Source of the DNA: Parcubacteria group bacterium Gr01-1014_30 | Lineage (GTDB): Bacteria; Patescibacteriota; Minisyncoccia; Minisyncoccales; 2-12-FULL-40-12 | Assembly: GCA_007376185.1 (NCBI GenBank) | Contig: VMFS01000005.1 | Location: forward strand, 1 to 46,617 | Reading direction: 5' to 3' | DNA: 46,617 nt | Shown here: positions 3,253 through 39,368 of the stretch, piece after piece | Layout of the letters: each line of letters starts with the position of its first letter | Numbering within the stretch: the first letter of the stretch is position 1 | Notes under the pieces: model-generated | What the model saw: the letters and a program-made list of their open reading frames with translations, nothing else | Database searches by the model: none | Told to the model about the DNA's origin: nothing | Translations under genes and position numbers: made by a program

Positions 3253-4520
3253 TGAATAGTTTTGCGGTGAAGTTTGCGGTAATAGCCGATGGCAAAGCGG
3301 TGGGCTTCTGCGTCAACTCGGAGTAAAAGATTGCGCAGTTCGGGCACTAACTCTGAGAGCTTAATTGGCTCTTTTTTATTGCTTTCGTATATTTTTACTC
3401 CTTTGTGACGGCTGTCTTTGGTCAGCGCGATGACATTAGTTTTTAGTTTGTAGTTTTTAGTTGTTAGTAAGGCGGCGTTGAGTTGCGCTTTACCTCCGTC
3501 AACAACTATCAAGCCGGGCAGAGGCCATTCTTTGTGGCGGAAGCGGCGCGTCAATACCTCTTTTAACATAGCTATGTCGTTGGGTTTTTTGTGCCAGCGA
3601 ATTTTAAACTTTCTGTATTCTTGTTTGTCGGAGCGGCCCTCTGTGAAAACAACCATGGCGCCTGTCGCAAACTTTCCTTGAATGTTAGAGACGTCGTAAC
3701 CTTCTATTCTGCGCCACTTCCTCGGCGGCGTAGCCGCTGCCGCTGCAGCTTGGTCTAACACTTTCGCGTTAGACATTACTTTTTCAAGAGAAACAATTCG
3801 GTCTCTTAACAGAGCCGCTTTTTCAAAGTCATGTTTTTTGCCGGCTTTTAACATCTCTTTTTCTAAGCGCAGGAGAACAGTTCTCCTTTGCCCTTTTAAT
3901 ACTTTGATTAGGTTTTTTATGTTTGCCTGATAACTTTTGGGGTCGGGGTTTGGCCCAGGGCAAAGGTTCAGATGGCACCAGGGGCATTTTGTCGCGGGGT
4001 GCTTTCGGGCCATATAGTACGGAAAAACTTTTCTTAGATATTTCAAAGTTTGCTTCAAAGCCCTTCCGTCCACAAACGGCCCAACGTAATTAGTTTTTAG
4101 TTTGTAGTTGGTAGTTTTTAGTTTCGTTTGGTGCGTTATAAGCATGCGGGGCAATTTTTCTTTGGTAACGGCTACGTAAAAGTAGTTCTTGTCGTCGCGC
4201 CATAAAATGTTGTATTTGGGCTTGTGCTTTTTTATTAACTTTGCTTCAAGAAGCAGGGCCTCAATTTCAGAGCCGGTCTCAAGATAGCTAACCTTCTTGG
4301 TTTGTTTAAGACGCTCTCGGTGCTGTTTGACTCTTTCACGCAGGTTGGCCGCTTTGCCGATGTATAAAACCTCTTTGCCCTTTTTGAAGATGTAAACCCC
4401 GGGGCCCTTTGGCAGCCTGCTCACTTGACCCCGTAATACAACTTCCGGCGCGTTCTTTTCAAGAACGCGAAGTCGCCGTAGGCGACCGGAAGATGATATA
4501 CGGGGTTGAGATATTTTCAA
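3249..4520 (-). CDS. uvrC: Excinuclease ABC subunit C, compact form lacking the C-terminal HhH domain; start uncertain (TTG 4520 or GTG 4424)
   Basis: LPKGPGVYIF..YIGKA.NLRERV GIY-YIG domain, FEKAALLRD UVR motif, RIEGYDVSN / PGLIVVDGGKAQ / DAEAHRFAI RNase H-like domain. Confidence 0.92.
   Translation of the reverse strand: MKISQPRISSSGRLRRLRVLEKNAPEVVLRGQVSRLPKGPGVYIFKKGKEVLYIGKAANLRERVKQHRERLKQTKKVSYLETGSEIEALLLEAKLIKKHKPKYNILWRDDKNYFYVAVTKEKLPRMLITHQTKLKTTNYKLKTNYVGPFVDGRALKQTLKYLRKVFPYYMARKHPATKCPWCHLNLCPGPNPDPKSYQANIKNLIKVLKGQRRTVLLRLEKEMLKAGKKHDFEKAALLRDRIVSLEKVMSNAKVLDQAAAAAATPPRKWRRIEGYDVSNIQGKFATGAMVVFTEGRSDKQEYRKFKIRWHKKPNDIAMLKEVLTRRFRHKEWPLPGLIVVDGGKAQLNAALLTTKNYKLKTNVIALTKDSRHKGVKIYESNKKEPIKLSELVPELRNLLLRVDAEAHRFAIGYYRKLHRKTIH
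3436..3468 (-). repeat. ACTA(A/C)(A/C)A heptamer tract in-frame in uvrC (TTKNYKLKTN)
   Basis: + strand ttagtttttagtttgtagtttttagttgttagt. Confidence 0.8.
4090..4124 (-). repeat. ACTA(A/C)(A/C)A heptamer tract in-frame in uvrC (KLKTTNYKLKTN)
   Basis: + strand ttagtttttagtttgtagttggtagtttttagttt. Confidence 0.8.
4429..4505. mobile_element. 77-bp miniature inverted-repeat element (CCCCGT...ACGGGG) with TTGA direct repeats
   Basis: About 20-bp imperfect terminal IR, two inner hairpins (cgcgttctt/aagaacgcg; gtcgcc/ggcgac), TTGA at 4425-4428 and 4506-4509. Confidence 0.8.
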
Positions 4521-4542: not shown

Positions 4543-7479
4543 ATGACGATAGGCAATTATATCAAAATTCGTGGAGCCAGGACACACAATTTAAAAAACG
4601 TGAACGTTGACATACCAAAGAATAAACTGGTGGTGATTACCGGCATTTCGGGTTCGGGAAAATCATCTCTTGCCTTTGACACGCTTTACGCCGAAGGCCA
4701 AAGAAGATATGTGGAGTCCTTGTCCGCTTACGCAAGGCAATTCTTGGGCGTGATGGAAAAACCCGACGCCGACTCAATTGAAGGCATAAGCCCTGCCATT
4801 TCAATTGACCAAAGAAAGGCCTCGCACAACCCCCGCTCTACCGTCGGCACTATCACCGAAATCTACGATTATTTGCGACTTCTTTTTGCCAGAGCTGGCG
4901 TTCCTCACTGCCCCAAGTGTAAAAAAAAGGTTTGGCGGCAAACAATTGACCAAATTGTGGAGCAGGTTTTGAAACTTCCCAGAAAAACTGAGATTTTAAT
5001 TTTGGGCCCGGTGGTTTCGGGCAAAAAAGGCGAACACCAAGGCGTGGTGGAAGAAATCAAGAGAGCCGGCTTTGCCAGGGTTAGAGTAAACGGAATAACT
5101 TACCGTACAGAAGAAGCCCTTGGCACAAAGTTGGACCGTAATAAAAAGCACAACATTGAAGTGGTGGTGGACAGATTAGTCCTTGATAAAGATTTGGATA
5201 GGACGAGGTTAGTGGACTCTTTGGAAACGGCTTTGAAGCTGGGCAAAGGAACGGTTAGCGTTAATCGTTTAGCGCAGCCCGTATCGTCTAACGTTAGACG
5301 TAAGACGGCAAACGAAACGGGTAGCGATAAACGACAAACGACCAACGATTTACTGTTTTCAGAACATTTTGCTTGCGAGGAGTGTGAAATTTCTTTGCCG
5401 GAGTTGGAACCGCGCCTTTTTTCTTTTAACAGCCCTTTTGGCGCTTGTTCTCCCTGCCAGGGCCTTGGCGAGAAACTTGAGGTTGACCCAAAATTGGTTT
5501 TGCCAAACCCTAACCTGTCAATTGCCGAGGGCGCCATTTTCCCTTGGGCAAGGGCTTCGCACAAAGTTGGGCGCCAGGGGTTTTTTTGGTGGCAGCTGCA
5601 AGAGCTGTCGGAAAAGGAAAAAATTGATTTGAACTCACCGGTTAAAAACTTGCCCGAAGACAAAGTTGATTTAATTCTGGAACTTGTCGTTTCTTCTTTG
5701 GAAAGGCGATACCGCGAAACGGACTCAGAATATACAAGAGAGGAAATTGAGCAGTATATGGTGGAGAAAAAATGCGACAAGTGCAAAGGTAGAAGATTGA
5801 AGCCAGAGGCCTTGGCCGTAACCGTGGCCGGTAAATCAATAGACGAAATCGTTGAAACGCAAGTTGATAGAGCTAAAGAATTCTTTGAAAACCTACTAAA
5901 CCCTAAACCCAGCCCTTTCTGGAAAGAGCGGGGTAAACCCTATACCCTAAACCCTCAAGTGCGCAAGATTGTTCAGCCCATCGTTAAAGAAATCGTTAAT
6001 CGCTTGCAATTTTTGGTTGACGTCGGCCTTGAATATTTAACTATGGACAGGAAAGCTCAAACTTTGGCAGGCGGAGAGGAGCAAAGAATAAGGTTAGCCA
6101 CTCAGCTTGGTTCAAAACTGACCGGTGTTTTGTATATTCTTGATGAACCATCGGTTGGCCTTCACGCCAGAGACCAAGGGCGACTTATCGCGACCTTAAA
6201 GGAGCTGAGGGATTTGGGTAACACCGTTGTGGCTGTTGAACACGATTCCCAAACCGTGCACGCTTCTGACTGGGTGGTGGATATTGGGCCCGGAGCTGGG
6301 AAACACGGCGGCAAAGTAGTTTTTGAGGGAACGCCCAGGGCGCTGTTAAAGGCCAATACGTTGACCGGGAAGTACTTATCAGGGAGGTTAGCGGTTAGCG
6401 TTAATCGTTTAGCGCAGCCCGTATCGTCTAACGTTAGACGTAAGACGGCAAACGAAACGGGCATCGCTACCGATAAACGAAAGACGAATTACTTAATTAT
6501 AAAAGGTGCTAAAGAGCACAACCTTAAAAACATTGACGTTAAGATACCACTGGGGAAGTTCGTGTGTATCACCGGCGTTTCGGGCTCGGGTAAAAGTTCT
6601 TTGATGCAAGACATTTTGGCCAAGGCCTTAATGAAAAAGTTTTACAGGGCAAAAGAAGAGCCGGGGCTACACGAGAAAATTTTGGGAACAGAACATTTGG
6701 ATAAAGCTGTCGTGGTTACCCAAGAACCTATTGGCAGAACCCCAAGAAGCAACCCAGCCACTTACACCGGCGCCTTTACATATATAAGGGATATTTTTTC
6801 CTCGACGAGAGAAGCCCGCGTGCGCGGATACAGACCAGGCCGTTTTTCTTTCAACGTTAAGGGCGGCAGGTGCGAGGCGTGCGAGGGCCAAGGCGTAAAA
6901 AAAATTGAGATGTACTTTTTGCCAGACGTCTATGTTGAGTGTCAGGAATGCAAAGGAAAAAGATTTAACAAAGAAACTTTGGCGGTGGAGTATAAAGGGA
7001 AAAACATAGCCGACGTTTTATCAATGACCGTGGAAGAGGCCTTGGAGTTTTTCAAAAACATACCGGCTCTCCATGCAAAGTTGAAAACGCTCAACGACGT
7101 TGGTTTGGGTTACATTGAAGTGGGCCAGCCGGCGCCCTCTTTGTCGGGAGGGGAGGCGCAAAGAGTAAAACTGGCAACGGAACTGGCAAGAAAGGCGACT
7201 GGCAGGAGTTTGTATATTCTGGATGAACCCACAACTGGGCTTCACTTGGACGACATTAAAAAATTGATTTTCGTTTTACGCGGCCTTGTTGATAAAGGCA
7301 ACACGGTGCTTTCGACCGAACACCAGATAGATTTTATTCGCGCTTCTGACTGGGTAATAGATTTGGGTCCGGAAGGCGGGGACAAGGGCGGCAGAATCGT
7401 GACCGAAGGCCCGCCTTCAGAAATCGCCAAAAACAAAAAAAGCTATACCAGTAGATATCTAAGATCGGGAAGGGCTTGA
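4543..7479 (+). CDS. uvrA: Excinuclease ABC subunit A
   Basis: GARTHNLKN, two [10 protein letters not shown] Walker A motifs, Zn fingers, L(A/S)GGExQR signatures, LYILDEP. Confidence 0.99.
5252..5321 (+). repeat. 70-bp palindromic in-frame insertion in uvrA, copy 1
   Basis: Identical to 6392-6461; contains the perfect 16-bp palindrome cgtctaacgttagacg. Confidence 0.95.
5896..5955 (+). repeat. CCCTAAA heptamer tract in uvrA with a nested 26-bp hairpin element (5908-5933) flanked by TAAA repeats
   Basis: ctaaaccc-TAAA-cccagccctttctggaaagagcgggg-TAAA-ccctataccctaaaccct. Confidence 0.8.
6392..6461 (+). repeat. 70-bp palindromic in-frame insertion in uvrA, copy 2
   Basis: Identical to 5252-5321, same reading frame ([23 protein letters not shown]). 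Confidence 0.95.
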
Positions 7480-10782: not shown

Positions 10783-12468
10783 ATGAAAGTAGATATTGAA
10801 GGTCTTAAAAAAATTTTGGTGGATTCAAATTTAATTTCTGAAAGGGATTTTAATTTGGCGACAAAGGAAGCCAAAGAGCAGAAGAAATCCCTGCAAGATT
10901 TAGTTGTTGAAAAAGATTTAATTTCTGACGAAGAACTCGGTCAGTTAATTGCTGACCAAATTGGCTTTCCTTATATCAACCTTAGCAAGGCCAAGGTACC
11001 AAAAGAAATTTTAGAAATTGTTCCCGAGCTGGTTGCTAGAGAACAAAAAATTATCGCCTTTGACAGGACCCAAGAGGGTTTAAAATTGGCAATGGCCAAC
11101 CCCGAGAATTTAGAGATAAGAGAATTTATTGAAAGAAAAAGCGGCGAAAGAGTCATACCTTATTTTGCCACCTCAAAAGATATTGAAGATGTTTTAAAGT
11201 TTTATAAGAAGGGAATCAGAGTAGAACTGGAAAAATTGGTAGGCAGAACTTTAAAAGAAGTTGAGCAAAAAACAAAAACGTCCGAAGAGCTCCAGCTGCC
11301 AGTTATTAAAATTACGGAACTAATTTTAAATTATGGTTATGAAAACCGAGCTTCGGATATTCATTTGGAACCCTACAAAAATAAAACAATCTTGCGGTAT
11401 CGAATCGACGGAGTGCTGCACGATGTTTTGACCTTGCCAAAATTTTGCCACGATCTTTTGGTCTCGCGAATTAAAATTCTCGCCAAACTGAGAACCGATA
11501 TCCACGAGATAGCTCAAGATGGCCATTTTTCTTTTGAGGTTCCTGCCGAAAAAGTTGATGTTAGGGTTTCAGTGGTGCCGATTGAAGAAGGCGAGAAAGT
11601 GGTTTTGAGATTACTTTCTGAGCGTGTCCGTAAATACGATCTTGAAGATTTGGGACTGCTGGAGGAACACGCCAAAATTATTAGAAGGAATATTAAAAAA
11701 CCCTGGGGAATGACTTTAATTTCGGGTCCGGCGGGCTCTGGGAAAACTACCACCTTATACGCGGTCTTGAAAATTTTAAATACCAGAAACGTTAACATTA
11801 TGACGATTGAAGACCCGATAGAATATGACATAGAAGGGGTTAATCAAATTCAGGTCAACCCAAAGACCAATTTAACTTTTGCCGAAGGTTTAAAAGCAAT
11901 TGTTAGACAAAATCCGGATATTATTATGGTTGGCGAAGTCAGAGACATAGAAACAGCCAAATTAACGGTCAATGCCGCTATGACCGGCCACCTGGTTTTA
12001 TCAACTTTTCATGCCATAGATTCTTCCACCACTTTGCCGCGCCTATCCGACATGGGGACAGAGCCTTTTCTAATTACCTCAACAGTAAACCTGATCATCT
12101 CTCAAAGATTGGTTCGCAAAATTTGTCCCAAATGCATTGAGAGTCATAAAGAATCTTTCTCAGAAATAGCCAAGCTTTTGGGAAGAGATTTAACTCTCAA
12201 ACCAAAAACAAAGGATGAAACTTGGCTTTTTAAAGGTCGGGGTTGCCCTCTTTGTCAAAAGACCGGCTATTTTGGCAGGACAGGTATTTTTGAAACCCTG
12301 GAAATGCAAGAGCCAATAAAAAAATTGGTTATGACCAAAGCCAATGCCGATCAAATTAGAAAGGCAGCCCGAAGCCTCGGAATGAGAACAATGATTGAAG
12401 ACGGTTTTGAAAAAGTTGAAAGAGGCATCACCACCTTGGAGGAAGTTTTAAGAGCCATTAAAGAATAA
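10783..12468 (+). CDS. pilB: Type IV pilus assembly ATPase (PilB/GspE family)
   Basis: ASDIHLEP, RYRIDGVL, GPAGSGKTTTLY, TIEDPIEY, PDIIMVGEVRD, tetra-Cys motif. Confidence 0.95.
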   Translation: MKVDIEGLKKILVDSNLISERDFNLATKEAKEQKKSLQDLVVEKDLISDEELGQLIADQIGFPYINLSKAKVPKEILEIVPELVAREQKIIAFDRTQEGLKLAMANPENLEIREFIERKSGERVIPYFATSKDIEDVLKFYKKGIRVELEKLVGRTLKEVEQKTKTSEELQLPVIKITELILNYGYENRASDIHLEPYKNKTILRYRIDGVLHDVLTLPKFCHDLLVSRIKILAKLRTDIHEIAQDGHFSFEVPAEKVDVRVSVVPIEEGEKVVLRLLSERVRKYDLEDLGLLEEHAKIIRRNIKKPWGMTLISGPAGSGKTTTLYAVLKILNTRNVNIMTIEDPIEYDIEGVNQIQVNPKTNLTFAEGLKAIVRQNPDIIMVGEVRDIETAKLTVNAAMTGHLVLSTFHAIDSSTTLPRLSDMGTEPFLITSTVNLIISQRLVRKICPKCIESHKESFSEIAKLLGRDLTLKPKTKDETWLFKGRGCPLCQKTGYFGRTGIFETLEMQEPIKKLVMTKANADQIRKAARSLGMRTMIEDGFEKVERGITTLEEVLRAIKE

Positions 12469-12474
12469 TATGAA

Positions 12475-12653
12475 CCCCGTTCGCTGCAGCTCCGCTGCAT
12501 CTCACGCCTCGGATTTCGTCCTCGGCGTTAGAAGTCCTTGGCAGAAAAAATTGCGAAGAAAATTTTTTCTGCGCAGGACAGACGGGGTATAATCAATAAA
12601 CAATGTCTGTCTGAAATTAGTTTTCACTATATAAGGGCAGACTTCTAACGGGG
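12475..12653. mobile_element. 179-bp composite inverted-repeat element (CCCCGTTAGAAGTC/GACTTCTAACGGGG) with TGAA direct repeats and a nested 44-bp insert
   Basis: TGAA at 12471-12474 and 12654-12657; nested insert 12482-12525 flanked by CGTT; inner hairpin gcagaaaaaatt/aattttttctgc. Confidence 0.85.
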
Positions 12654-13693
12654 TGAAAGAGGAAGTAATATTTTTTACTGAACACTTATCTTTGATGCTT
12701 AAAGGAGGCGTCCCCATTGTTGAAGTTTTGGAAACGTTAAAGAGCGGAATCAAATCGGAATCTTTCAGAAGAGTTCTTGACGATATTTCGAAAAGTATTT
12801 TAGAAGGGAAGAGTTTGTATTGGGCCCTGGGCCGCCATAGCAAAATTTTTGATCAATTTTATATCAGCATAATCAGGATTAGTGAAGAATCGGGAAGTTT
12901 AGAAGAAAACTTAAAGTATCTATCACAGAAACTTCGCCGTGACAACGAGATGAAGAAAAAAGTTAAGGGAGCTTTGATCTATCCAGCAATAATTGTTTTT
13001 CTAGCTCTGGTTATTACTTTTACCACCACTCTTTTTATTTTGCCGAAAATTACCAATCTTTTTCAGTTTTTAGAAATTGATTTGCCGTTGGCAACTAAAA
13101 TTTTAATTTCAGCTACCGTTTTTTTTCAAAAATACTGGCTTTTCATTTTAGTCGGGATAATCGCGAGTTTTGTAATTTTAGGATTTCTGCGAAGGTTAAA
13201 GCTGTTTAAACTTTATTTTGACAAGATAAGTTTATTTTTACCCTTGTTTGGTCCAATCATGAAAAATTTTAATTTACTCTTTCTTTCAAGAACCCTTTTT
13301 ACGCTTTTGAAAAGCGGAGTGCCGTTAATTCAAGCCCTAAGAATATGTGCTGAAACCGTTCCCAACGAGACCTATAAAAGAAATTTGCTTTCGGTGAAAT
13401 TGACAGTGGAGAGAGGAGAGAAAATTAGCAGCGGGTTAGAAAAATTTTCCAAAATTTTCCCGCCCGTTTTTTTCCAAATGGTTTTAGTTGGGGAAAGGTC
13501 GGGAACACTGGAAGAAAGTTTGCTTTATTTGGCTGAATATTATGAAGAAGAGACCGACGCAACCTTAAAAAATCTTTCCAATATTTTAGAACCAGCTCTG
13601 TTAATTTTGGTTGGCATTTTTGTTGCTTTTGTAGCCATAGCCGTTATTGTTCCAATCTATAAATTTACCGGTCAACTACGGTTTCGTCAGTAA
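12653..13693 (+). CDS. pilC: Type IV pilus platform protein (PilC/GspF family)
   Basis: FTEHLSLMLKGGVPI, EESGSLE, GALIYP, LLKSGVPL, MVLVGERSGTLE, LEPALL. Confidence 0.93.
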   Translation: MKEEVIFFTEHLSLMLKGGVPIVEVLETLKSGIKSESFRRVLDDISKSILEGKSLYWALGRHSKIFDQFYISIIRISEESGSLEENLKYLSQKLRRDNEMKKKVKGALIYPAIIVFLALVITFTTTLFILPKITNLFQFLEIDLPLATKILISATVFFQKYWLFILVGIIASFVILGFLRRLKLFKLYFDKISLFLPLFGPIMKNFNLLFLSRTLFTLLKSGVPLIQALRICAETVPNETYKRNLLSVKLTVERGEKISSGLEKFSKIFPPVFFQMVLVGERSGTLEESLLYLAEYYEEETDATLKNLSNILEPALLILVGIFVAFVAIAVIVPIYKFTGQLRFRQ

Positions 13694-15010: not shown

Positions 15011-15628
15011 ATGGAAACCCCGCCCTTTCTCCACTCAAGACTTCAGGTTAGTCAACCGCGTAAGGCGAAGCCGCCTATCGGCTTTGGCTATATATTACCT
15101 CAAGCTATCAGTGGAGAAAGGGCGGGGTTTACCTTAGTTGAACTTTTGATTTATACTGGAATTGTTGGCTCAATTTTAGTTGTGACTACCGGATTTTTAT
15201 GGAATATCGTTTTTGGCAGTATCAAAGAAACCGCTTATCAAGAGGTTCAGCAAAATGGAAGATTTGTTCTATTGAAAATGACTCAAGAGATTAAAAAGGC
15301 CTCGGCAATAAACAGCCCCATACCAGGTTCTTCTTTGAGCACCCTTTCTTTGGCCATGGCTAGCAGTTCTTTAAACCCTACAGCGTTTGACGTAATTGGC
15401 GGACGTTTGAGAATTACTCAAGGCAGCAGCAGCCCTTATTACTTAACCAGCGATTTGGTAACTGTAAGCAACATTCAATTCAGCAATCTTTCGTATCCTG
15501 CCACCCCAGGCGCAGTTAGAGTTGAAATGACCATTGAATATATCAATCCCGAAGCAAGAAGCGAGTATCAAGCGGTGATTGATTTAGTTTCTACGGTTTC
15601 TTTGGTTCCTGGGGGAGCCCAACCTTAG
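15011..15628 (+). CDS. Minor pilin (PilW/GspJ-like) with an abnormally long leader
   Basis: GFTLVELLIY at residue 39; leader encoded by a palindromic element. Confidence 0.8.
   Translation: METPPFLHSRLQVSQPRKAKPPIGFGYILPQAISGERAGFTLVELLIYTGIVGSILVVTTGFLWNIVFGSIKETAYQEVQQNGRFVLLKMTQEIKKASAINSPIPGSSLSTLSLAMASSSLNPTAFDVIGGRLRITQGSSSPYYLTSDLVTVSNIQFSNLSYPATPGAVRVEMTIEYINPEARSEYQAVIDLVSTVSLVPGGAQP
15015..15130. mobile_element. Inverted-repeat element (CCCCGCCCTTT family), in-frame in the pilin leader
   Basis: Perfect 21-bp IR aaaccccgccctttctccact / agtggagaaagggcggggttt. Confidence 0.8.
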
Positions 15629-24029: not shown

Positions 24030-24293
24030 ATGCTCAAATATCATTTTTACATTGCTCGTTGTTTAGATAAAACTTTATACGTTGGCAGTACTGACAATAT
24101 TGATAAACGAATAATCAGACATAATACTGGTCAGGGATCTAAATGGATTAAACAACATGGAACCGCCGAGATTATTTACGCTGAAGATTATAATACGTTA
24201 CTTGAGGTAAGAAGGAGGGAAAGACAAGTCAAGAAATGGTCAAGAGTTAAGAAAGAAAATTTGATCTCCGGAAAATGGGGCAAGCTTAAGTAG
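24030..24293 (+). CDS. Stand-alone GIY-YIG nuclease (UPF0213/YhbQ-like)
   Basis: FYIARC.DKTLYVGSTDNIDKRIIRHN.G.GSKW..RRERQVKKWSR.KKENLI. Confidence 0.9.
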   Translation: MLKYHFYIARCLDKTLYVGSTDNIDKRIIRHNTGQGSKWIKQHGTAEIIYAEDYNTLLEVRRRERQVKKWSRVKKENLISGKWGKLK

Positions 24294-36785: not shown

Positions 36786-37678
36786 ATGGAGTCCTTGCAA
36801 AACATAAAATCGCGCCTTCGCGCAGTTCGCAACATCGGGCAGATTACCAAGGCAATGGAAGTTGTGGCCGCTACTAAAATGAGGAAAAGTCAGGAAATAG
36901 CTCTCAGGACTCGCCCTTATGCTTTCAAAGCGCTTGAACTTTTGAGCAAACTTAGCCGCTTCTCACCTCTGGAAACGGCTTTGACCAAAAAGCGGCAGGT
37001 TAAGACAACTTTACTCGTTGTCATTGCTTCTGACCGCGGTTTGGCTGGCGCTTTCAACACTCAAGTATTTCGATCAGCTGAAAAGCTATTCAAAGCCGAC
37101 AGTGTTTACGCGGCCGTGGGAAAGAAAGCAGGAAAGTTTATTTTGAAAAAAGGTTTATCTTTGGTTTCCGGTTTTCAGGGTTTTGGCGATTTTGTGAGAT
37201 TTGAAGACATAAAGCCCTTGGCCGACTTTGTCATAGACGGGTTTAAATCGGCCAGGTGGGACCGTGTAGTTACCGTGTCAATGCATTTTCGCACGGCTTT
37301 AAAACAAGAGATGGTAAACCAGCAGGTTCTTCCAGTTGACTTTGAAAAAATTGAGGAGACCGTAAAGGCAATAGTCCCGGAACACGGTAAGTACGCAGAA
37401 TCTCTACCAACTACCAACTACAAACTACAAACTGCAGGCATTGACTACCTGTTTGAGCCTTCTGCCAAAGAAACGCTTGAAATGCTCATACCTCATTTGG
37501 TTAAAATGCAGATTTATCATTTGGTGCTGGAGGCAAATGCGTCTGAACATTCCGCAAGAAGAGTGGCTATGAAGCAGGCCTCTGACAACTCAGACGAGCT
37601 TTTTTCCGCTTTTACCCTTCAGTACAACAAAGCTAGGCAGGAAGCAATCACCAAAGAAACGATTGAAATAACGTCAAC

Positions 37679-37691
<13 letters not shown>
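36786..37691 (+). CDS. atpG: ATP synthase gamma subunit (C-terminus altered by insertion)
   Basis: QITKAMEVVAA, SDRGLAGAFN, ASEHSARRVAM, YNKARQEAIT. Confidence 0.98.
37404..37431 (+). repeat. CTAC(C/A)AA heptamer x4 in-frame in atpG (LPTTNYKLQT)
   Basis: ctaccaa ctaccaa ctacaaa ctacaaa. Confidence 0.85.

Positions 37692-39368
<1,677 letters not shown>

Follow-up and report, generated by a model that had tools for sequence, protein, structure and literature searches.

A probable miniature transposable element on the start codon of a pilC-like gene in a Parcubacteria genome, and its relatives that carry a GIY-YIG nuclease gene

We have analysed a stretch of 46,617 nucleotides (the window) from Parcubacteria group bacterium Gr01-1014_30, contig C4 of a 769-kb genome in 11 contigs that is 97% complete, and have focussed on the junction between its pilB-like traffic ATPase gene and the pilC-like gene for the platform protein, where a non-coding element of 179 bp (12475-12653) lies upon the pilC start codon (Table 1). 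After the pilB stop there is a single base, t (12469), and then an ATG, and the element stands between two copies of TGAA (12471-74 and 12654-57). Its terminal inverted repeats are perfect over 14 bp once a nested insert of 44 bp is set aside: this insert sits between CGTT at 12478-81 and CGTT at 12526-29, and if it is taken out together with one CGTT the left arm becomes CCCCGTTAGAAGTC, which agrees at every base with the reverse complement of the right arm GACTTCTAACGGGG (the 14-mer arm, with up to 2 mismatches, has 2 occurrences in the window vs. 0.28 expected). The last G of the element and the duplicated TG form a GTG (12653-55) that opens a T2SSF/PilC open reading frame (ORF) of 346 aa. 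An earlier note, made from the letters alone, had described an element in the pilC start codon that regenerates a GTG, an ATG one base after the pilB stop once the element is removed, a split left arm that removal of the 44 bp restores to a perfect 14-bp inverted repeat, and an old ATG that meets a TAA after 40 codons; the sequence agrees with this description on every count, for the restored junction base for base.

Table 1. Features of the pilB-pilC junction, with further copies of the two repeat families (positions are those of the window, or contig:position in the same genome; L numbers are loci in other genomes)
Feature	Position	Strand	Basis
pilB-like traffic ATPase gene, stop TAA 12466-68	10783..12468	+	Pfam T2SSE, E 3e-120
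Former pilC ATG (12470-72), now a 40-codon relic ORF (MNPVR...), stop TAA 12590-92	12470..12592	+	no Pfam match
Target-site duplication, left TGAA	12471..12474	+	sequence; family statistics
Left terminal inverted repeat, outer 7 nt CCCCGTT	12475..12481	+	sequence
44-bp double-hairpin repeat of a separate family, splitting the left inverted repeat	12482..12525	+	at least 12 other loci
Left terminal inverted repeat, inner 7 nt AGAAGTC	12530..12536	+	sequence
Core hairpin 1: GCAGAAAAAATT, 8-nt loop, AATTTTTTCTGC	12541..12572	+	predicted fold; conserved in 27 aligned copies
Internal ACGGGG (copy of the right tip), then TATAAT	12582..12593	+	conserved in the subfamily; pairs with the left tip in the predicted fold
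Core hairpin 2: GTCTGTC ... GGCAGAC, small inner hairpin	12605..12642	+	predicted fold; 27-copy alignment
Right terminal inverted repeat GACTTCTAACGGGG	12640..12653	+	sequence
Target-site duplication, right TGAA	12654..12657	+	sequence
pilC-like platform protein gene from the rebuilt GTG	12653..13693	+	Pfam T2SSF, E 1e-57
Copies with TTGA duplication on TTGAC(A/C/T)	L022, L023, L035, L049, L050, L054, L067, L098; C7:36475, C11:93138
Repeatedly struck gene, ssb	L033; C2:23037
Repeatedly struck gene, RNase H-like	L053; L063
Repeatedly struck gene, ftsZ	L093; C11:134028
Other loci of the 44-bp family	C5:13448, C8:10473, C9:30121, C11:4803, C11:110474 and others

The element belongs to a dispersed family. 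In this genome we found 24 matches to the left tip and 26 to the right tip (at most 1 mismatch), from which 23 copies of 38-231 bp with tips CCCCGTTAGAA..TTCTAACGGGG were curated, 2 of them nested inside others. The 11-nt tips are common to all copies and the interiors fall into several subfamilies. Pairs of tips spaced 15-200 nt apart are present in 19 of 61 genomes of the same order, and a reversed control pattern gave 0 matches. We have examined the flanks of 85 short copies, 64 from 18 relatives and the 21 outer copies of this genome; this census leaves out 12 further tip-pair copies, a few others (e.g. G055:C17, G031:C11, G022:C27) and copies 10 nt or less from the end of a locus. The 4 bp on either side were identical in 50 of the 85, against 2 of 85 when the right 4-mer was taken 6 nt further on. 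Tabulating the flanks of other copies was the check that the earlier note had proposed for its view that TGAA is a target-site duplication, and the result supports it. Counted together with their reverse complements, the duplicated words were mostly TGAA (16), TTGA (9), TATG (7), TTTA (6) and TGAG (4), the rarer ones being TGGA (3), CAAG (2), CCCG, TGTA and TTAA (1 each). No match was found in Rfam for 12300-12800 at E values up to 1. Integron attC sites were also considered, given that the tips contain GTTAGAA/TTCTAAC, and rejected, as the order of the boxes and their register do not fit the attC layout.

The pilB-pilC junction of relatives is short. In the two closest genomes, which have the same gene order, the pilB stop and the pilC ATG are separated by 4 nt (G004) and 11 nt (G001), vs. 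184 nt between stop and start here; an unrelated long spacer in relatives, the finding that the earlier note had named as speaking against it, was not seen. Contigs from sequencing runs add to this picture. In runs X3 and X4 a 151-nt contig, ca. 86% identical (record 12), contains the end of pilB and the ATG, followed by CAAAAGTAATATGCTCGCTGAATC.., which is similar to the start of pilC and unlike the element, and in another (record 17) the letters before the 5' end of pilC are the last 24 nt of a family element, one that has a different interior. These two runs come from different studies and years, yet their tables are identical contig for contig and may be one data set, so that we have counted them as one. 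In the run from which the genome was assembled, contigs (records 1, 6 and 7) cover both junctions and the unique part of the interior, and no contig joins across the ends of the element; one joint within it, from 12542 to 12627, probably derives from another copy.

The positions taken by the family are very particular. A rebuilt GTG followed by a long ORF was found at 32 of the 85 copies (24/64 in relatives, 8/21 among the outer copies of this genome), and of the 20 copies whose perfect duplication is TGAA or TGAG, every one has a rebuilt start codon. This genome has 341 TGAA/TGAG sites at the first start codon of ORFs of at least 80 codons and 976 outside all such ORFs, so that if insertions were merely tolerated there, the expected share of start-codon sites would be at most 0.26; the start-codon bias of the TGAA/TGAG copies is far above this null. 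The host genes in this genome are pilC, ssb (VNLNKVFLIGRLTRDPE), an RsmI-like gene, gatB (VKYQPTVGLEVHVEL), rpmJ, coding for L36 (VKVRPSVKKICKNCK), and three others, L36 being among those that have no alternative usable start. Those of the relatives, identified only by reading the N-termini by eye, include GroES, MurG, RecR, S18, SmpB and FtsZ. A copy at C8:31335 was dropped as a ninth start-codon copy, since it lacks a duplication and an open frame on the opposite strand runs through it. Some genes have been struck in genomes of different families, i.e. ssb (G000/G052), an RNase H-like gene (G001/G037) and ftsZ (G022, and in frame in G000), all named from their N-terminal peptides, and the different interiors of the elements at these shared hosts suggest repeated hits rather than inheritance.

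Start codons are struck in a second register as well: in 5 of 7 copies flanked by TATG the native ATG is kept one base past the element and opens an ORF of at least 137 codons. The copies of the TTGA class sit on TTGAC(A/C/T) words, and in ca. 10 of 14 rows, counted by eye, the TTGAC word is followed after ca. 17 nt by an extended -10-like box (TGnTAnAAT). To judge from the letters, these sites look like -35 hexamers rebuilt by the duplication. We found no register shared by the start-codon and -35 targets, TGAA and TTGA having TGA in common one base out of register. Taken together, the target would seem to be chosen rather than merely tolerated.

Longer relatives of the element carry a gene. 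With tips 201-400 nt apart, we found 5 copies of 278-344 bp in 5 of the 61 genomes of the order, this one not among them, each filled by a single ORF of ca. 86 aa (MWYVYLL..KWYIGST..) that terminates at a TAA within the right tip. The protein belongs to the Pfam GIY-YIG family (E 2.4e-15), its best relative of solved structure is UPF0213 BH0048 (1zg2, E 6e-5), and NCBIfam gave only a sub-threshold match to a group I intron endonuclease. It has 634 clusters at E values up to 1e-5, the top 120 of which are 72-91% identical to it and are named from Jorgensen-, Wildermuth-, Falkow- and Levybacteria, all lineages of the candidate phyla radiation (CPR). Many of the stored forms have 93 aa with the N-terminus MNPVRSQ.WYVY, in which MNPVRS is the in-frame translation of ATG-AA plus the tip CCCCGTTAGAAG. 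When species genomes were scanned with one nuclease protein we obtained 54 loci, and 43 of them have the tip pair (26 of these with a perfect 4-bp duplication); here too the element is filled by the nuclease ORF, which ends at a stop codon within the right tip. Eleven of the 43 are start-codon copies, with a rebuilt G/A-TG and an ORF of at least 100 codons, and 5 more are of the TATG class. The nuclease is co-directional with the host gene in all 16, and in 9 of the 11 start-codon copies its frame is open from the host ATG or TTG (MNPVRS..WYVY). As the relic ORF at 12470 shares this beginning with the 93-aa nucleases, it represents the same reading from the host ATG into the tip, with no nuclease behind it. 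Short dispersed copies are found in the same genomes as nuclease-carrying ones (e.g. G001), and the GIY-YIG nuclease may well be the mobilising enzyme, acting in trans on the short copies.

We consider it very likely that what lies on the pilC start codon is a miniature transposable element of the non-autonomous kind, with gene-carrying GIY-YIG relatives, and that it rebuilt the GTG from which pilC now probably begins. It would have entered the pilC start codon at 5'-A^TGAA-3' (the caret marks the point of insertion) with duplication of the four bases TGAA, as a 131-bp core with a 48-bp hairpin repeat already aboard. All members of the family end in ...CGGGG, so that the last G and the duplicated TG give an in-frame GTG and the N-terminus of PilC is kept. 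A broader proposal can be made, to which we incline with little more than even confidence, namely that the family is a new kind of transposon, with an autonomous form of ca. 280 bp whose only gene is the 86-aa GIY-YIG nuclease, that inserts in one orientation, rebuilds the signals of its host and has its nuclease read from the host ATG. Such a transposon would go to start codons (A^TGNN or ^TATG), or else to -35 boxes at their TTGA; the 4-bp duplication would restore the host signal on the far side of the element, and the nuclease would make use of the host's own ATG and ribosome-binding context (MNPVRS..).

A number of observations weigh against the first of these readings. A perfect 4-bp duplication is lacking in 35 of the 85 copies, and the genomes compared are kin and not independent, which makes the binomial figure for the start-codon bias too strong. 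In this genome (97% complete) no gene is convincingly enclosed by tips that lie 200-3500 nt apart, and its four intact small GIY-YIG genes share only ca. 32-42% identity with the family nuclease and have different surroundings: C6:142693-142992 and C11:76455-76760 in hairpin elements of ca. 300 bp, C3:22597 at the end of a tRNA, and window 24036-24260. To our knowledge there is no transposition chemistry described for a lone GIY-YIG nuclease, and a nuclease by itself does not explain the joining of strands and the 4-bp duplication. With regard to the locus, the closest genomes have PilC proteins only 48-49% identical, the exact empty site taatATGAAAGAG was found in no genome of the same species, and a scan of metagenome contigs for PilC gave 4 loci, of which L105 is the only close one (68% identity), and this contig starts within pilC. 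The evidence from reads consists of short contigs of low depth with an overhang of 30 letters. Finally, there is no Shine-Dalgarno motif at the normal distance 5' of GTG 12653, the nearest AAGGG ending 15 nt upstream. Most host genes bearing an insert have no clear motif of this kind before the old ATG either, so that it may be dispensable in these organisms. For the same reason we dropped the idea that a hairpin brings a Shine-Dalgarno sequence near the start.

The 44-bp insert is a repeat in its own right, with the layout TCGCTG-stem-TCC/TTCG-stem-TCTCACGCCTCG-stem-TCGGC, and belongs to a separate family of ca. 46-56 nt, present at 12 or more other loci in the genome, several of them inside long ORFs; the stems vary from copy to copy and the arms stay complementary. 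An identical stretch of 52 nt is found at the same position of the left tip in two other copies of the main family, C6:81381-81557 and C2:23037-23267 (the latter also contains a nested 80-bp family member), each of which occupies a different start codon and has TGAA or TGA(A/G) flanks of its own. The composite was detected in 0 of 60 relatives, and in the contigs of runs X3 and X4 it was seen at another locus (record 13). Its presence on two other start codons indicates that the nesting preceded the arrival at pilC, and the simplest reading would be that the nesting occurred once and that the composite was then inserted at least three times in this lineage. The earlier note was right that an insert splits the left arm; its account of the nesting needs the correction that this did not occur in place at pilC. 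Nor is CGTT supported as a duplication made by this insert: by eye, no other copy of the 44-bp family in the alignment has 4-bp flanks that match, and the repeat's 5' consensus itself includes GTT, so that CGTT is better read as an overlap.

We have also considered what the element does to the expression of pilC. GTG 12653 is the first start codon of its frame downstream of a TAA at 12632-34, and thus the first start that retains the N-terminal residues common to relatives (KEEVIFFTEHL here, aligned with KEKIFLVRHL); position 1 of the Pfam T2SSF profile falls on residue 8 of the protein started in this way. To go by these alignments, it is probably the start codon in use. The spacer region has a predicted fold of -78.4 kcal/mol (z -5.3), in which an internal GACGGGG is paired with the left tip, and the centroid leaves the GTG region unpaired. 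What was formerly a tight junction (stop, 1 nt, ATG) would thus appear to be interrupted by 184 structured bases. Ribosomes leaving pilB could restart at the old ATG and then stop at 12590-92, in which case PilC would depend on fresh initiation at the GTG, and a long structured spacer in place of the tight junction may shift the ratio of PilB to PilC protein; the earlier note had suggested that the element could uncouple or tune the translation of PilC. A scan of 12300-12800 for sigma-70 promoters found no site with both hexamers; a single terminator-like site was seen in this region, on the minus strand inside pilB.

The conserved parts of the element bear on whether it has been retained at pilC for the benefit of the host, e.g. 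as a promoter or translation start region that makes pilC independent of pilB, which we find unlikely. In an alignment of 27 copies the layout is tip, A/T hairpin, internal ACGGGG and TAnAA-rich box, second hairpin and other tip, and the arms of hairpin 2 covary in some copies (e.g. GTTTTCCC/GGGCAAAC in C3 and C7). The internal ACGGGG-TATAAT, and a TATATAA box 20-25 nt before the GTG, are conserved across genomes of different families, and together with the unpaired GTG region they could be taken as a sign of function, as could the uniform orientation of the window subfamily (ca. 130 nt), whose TATAAGGGCAGAC..CTAACGGGG end adjoins the host gene in 24 of 24 start-codon copies. Among its TATG-class copies with a gene, one agrees in orientation (L061) and one does not (L036). 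However, only 4 of the 27 copies in the alignment have the exact TATAAT, the promoter scan was negative, and the same element is found on unrelated genes. More to the point, the gene-carrying copies are equally co-oriented (16/16), so that directional insertion accounts for the bias with no need for a host function. When the ends of short elements were matched to those of nuclease copies, the alignment scores were close in both orientations.

It would be more conventional to regard these copies as ordinary MITEs (miniature inverted-repeat transposable elements) moved by a known type of transposase (IS3/IS481-type rve, or IS5/IS1380-type) with the GIY-YIG gene as a mere passenger. The genome does have one Y1 (IS200/RAYT-type) and two rve-type transposase genes (C6:22653-22973; C2:63031-63375; C6:78383-78664), and several DDE families typically produce duplications of 3-5 bp. 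Yet we judge this improbable: the rve genes are not bounded by the tips, nor is any other gene at 200-3500 bp convincingly so here; no match to DDE_Tnp_1 was found in the genome; the tips begin with CCCCG, unlike the TG..CA of IS3; and it is the nuclease ORF that fills the 5 long copies and 43 further loci, with its stop inside the right tip. One may also ask whether the 184 nt are native to pilC, as a structured leader or a regulatory RNA, or whether the contig was mis-joined at a repeat. The strong fold would suit the former, and the latter might be invoked because the left ca. 95 nt are identical in three loci, which could mislead an assembler, and because none of the source-run contigs extends over the complete element. 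Both are barely credible, given that unrelated genes carry the same sequence, in each case with a separate 4-bp duplication, that Rfam has no match, that the closest relatives have spacers of 4-11 nt in the same pilB-pilC order, and that both junctions, like the unique interior, are covered by contigs of the source run.

Several other repeats and related genes were seen along the way. The two ca. 300-bp GIY-YIG elements on C6 and C11 have other tips (CCCCGCACCTTTTCAG and CCCCGCCCTTGAAAAG) and are flanked by TTGA beside a TTGACA word, and the GIY-YIG gene of the window (24036-24260) is a 98-aa open frame (Pfam E 4e-13) with hairpin-rich flanks that is not bounded by the family tips. Some copies of the family are read through in frame, in hosts that include the N-terminus of FtsZ, prepilin leaders and an L25-like protein. 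At C6:10391-10521 a 131-nt copy and its 4-bp duplication (45 codons) lie in a prepilin leader and rebuild G/FTLTELL, and at C11:134028-134110 the N-terminal tail of FtsZ includes 29 codons made up of an 83-nt copy and 4 bp; the same kind of read-through was seen at C8:31335, C10:43419, C2:24082, C3:5535 and C5:18363. A palindrome of 110 nt from another family (CCCCGCCCTTTCTCC..GGAGAAAGGGCGGGG) is found in the window at 15018-15127 (ORF 15011-15628), 7 nt past a pilin-like ATG, and is read in frame to give a leader of 39 aa ending in ..ERAG/FTLVELL; it has a sister copy at C6:4363-4472. The window also contains a 78-nt pair, 96% alike (5252-5329 / 6392-6469), a 44-nt tandem pair (37679-37766) and a repeat of the AGTTTTTAGTTTGTAG type in both orientations (3435-3468 / 4089-4122 / 37393-37433).

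If the broader proposal is true, a lone 86-aa GIY-YIG protein that moves DNA would make this the smallest autonomous transposon known to us, with a chemistry outside those of the recognised insertion-sequence families. Rebuilding start codons and -35 boxes would then be a strategy suited to genomes with almost no spare DNA, the element picking, in a very compact genome, the rare sites where an insertion is nearly cost-free to the host. There are also consequences for the annotation of CPR genomes, since the start of pilC, ssb, rpmJ and gatB would be a GTG that the element forms, situated 130-230 nt past the apparent operon junction, and spurious short ORFs (MNPVR...) arise at the old ATG, so that gene callers may misplace starts or call such ORFs. 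Word searches of open-access full texts found no description of MITEs in CPR bacteria, of tip-bounded, duplicating GIY-YIG elements or of insertions that rebuild start codons, and apparently we are dealing with a large, undescribed family of tiny mobile elements that land on start signals in ultra-small bacteria.

Among known systems, the bacterial MITEs (Correia/NEMIS of Neisseria, RUP, ERIC, Nezha) are similar in being short, non-coding and multi-copy, with inverted repeats, short duplications and hairpins, and in having a longer relative with the same ends. The longer form of the present family, however, carries a GIY-YIG gene and no DDE transposase, and the family also differs by the concentration of its insertions on start codons and on the TTGA of -35 boxes, signals that they rebuild, and by its uniform orientation to the host gene. 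The difference extends to the DDE insertion sequences themselves (IS3, IS5 and IS1380 types), given that the GIY-YIG ORF is the only one between the tips. The palindromic elements of Rickettsia are likewise tolerated in genes, and other copies of our family are read in frame as these are, whereas the pilC copy is on a start codon, where a new start has been made, and has no read-through frame, the stop after 40 codons indicating that it is not read through; we know of no nuclease partner for the Rickettsia elements. Free-standing GIY-YIG homing endonuclease genes (Seg/Tev) are also small selfish genes between host genes or at their edges. They invade one cognate site via recombination and have no inverted tips or duplications, and the family differs from them by both of these features, by its many unrelated target genes and by its non-coding derivatives.

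A different kind of likeness is found in IS200/IS605 and REP/RAYT elements, which make no target duplication and have a Y1 HUH transposase. They resemble the family in being hairpin-based, very small and inserted in an oriented manner by a short target (they are cited in the discussion of PMC11893778), and a single-strand mechanism of this type would account for the uniform orientation. The family differs in that 4-bp duplications are the rule and the GIY-YIG gene is the only one, with no Y1 in the long copies. The last comparison is with the Ssn GIY-YIG single-strand nucleases, which are flanked by the dispersed hairpin repeats NTS/SRM, the authors likening the layout NTS-ssnA-NTS to an insertion sequence (Chenal et al., 2025, PMC11893778); the words "MITE", "duplication" and "start codon" are absent from the text of that paper. 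The best solved relative of our nuclease is UPF0213 BH0048 rather than a named Ssn, and the single-domain GIY-YIG protein of ca. 100 aa that characterizes Ssn has its counterpart in the gene-carrying members (86 aa) and not in the window copy. The two systems are alike in having a small single-domain GIY-YIG gene between copies of its own dispersed hairpin repeat, and they differ in that the repeats of the present family are the inverted tips of a unit of ca. 280 bp, with a 4-bp duplication around it and the stop codon of the ORF inside the tip.

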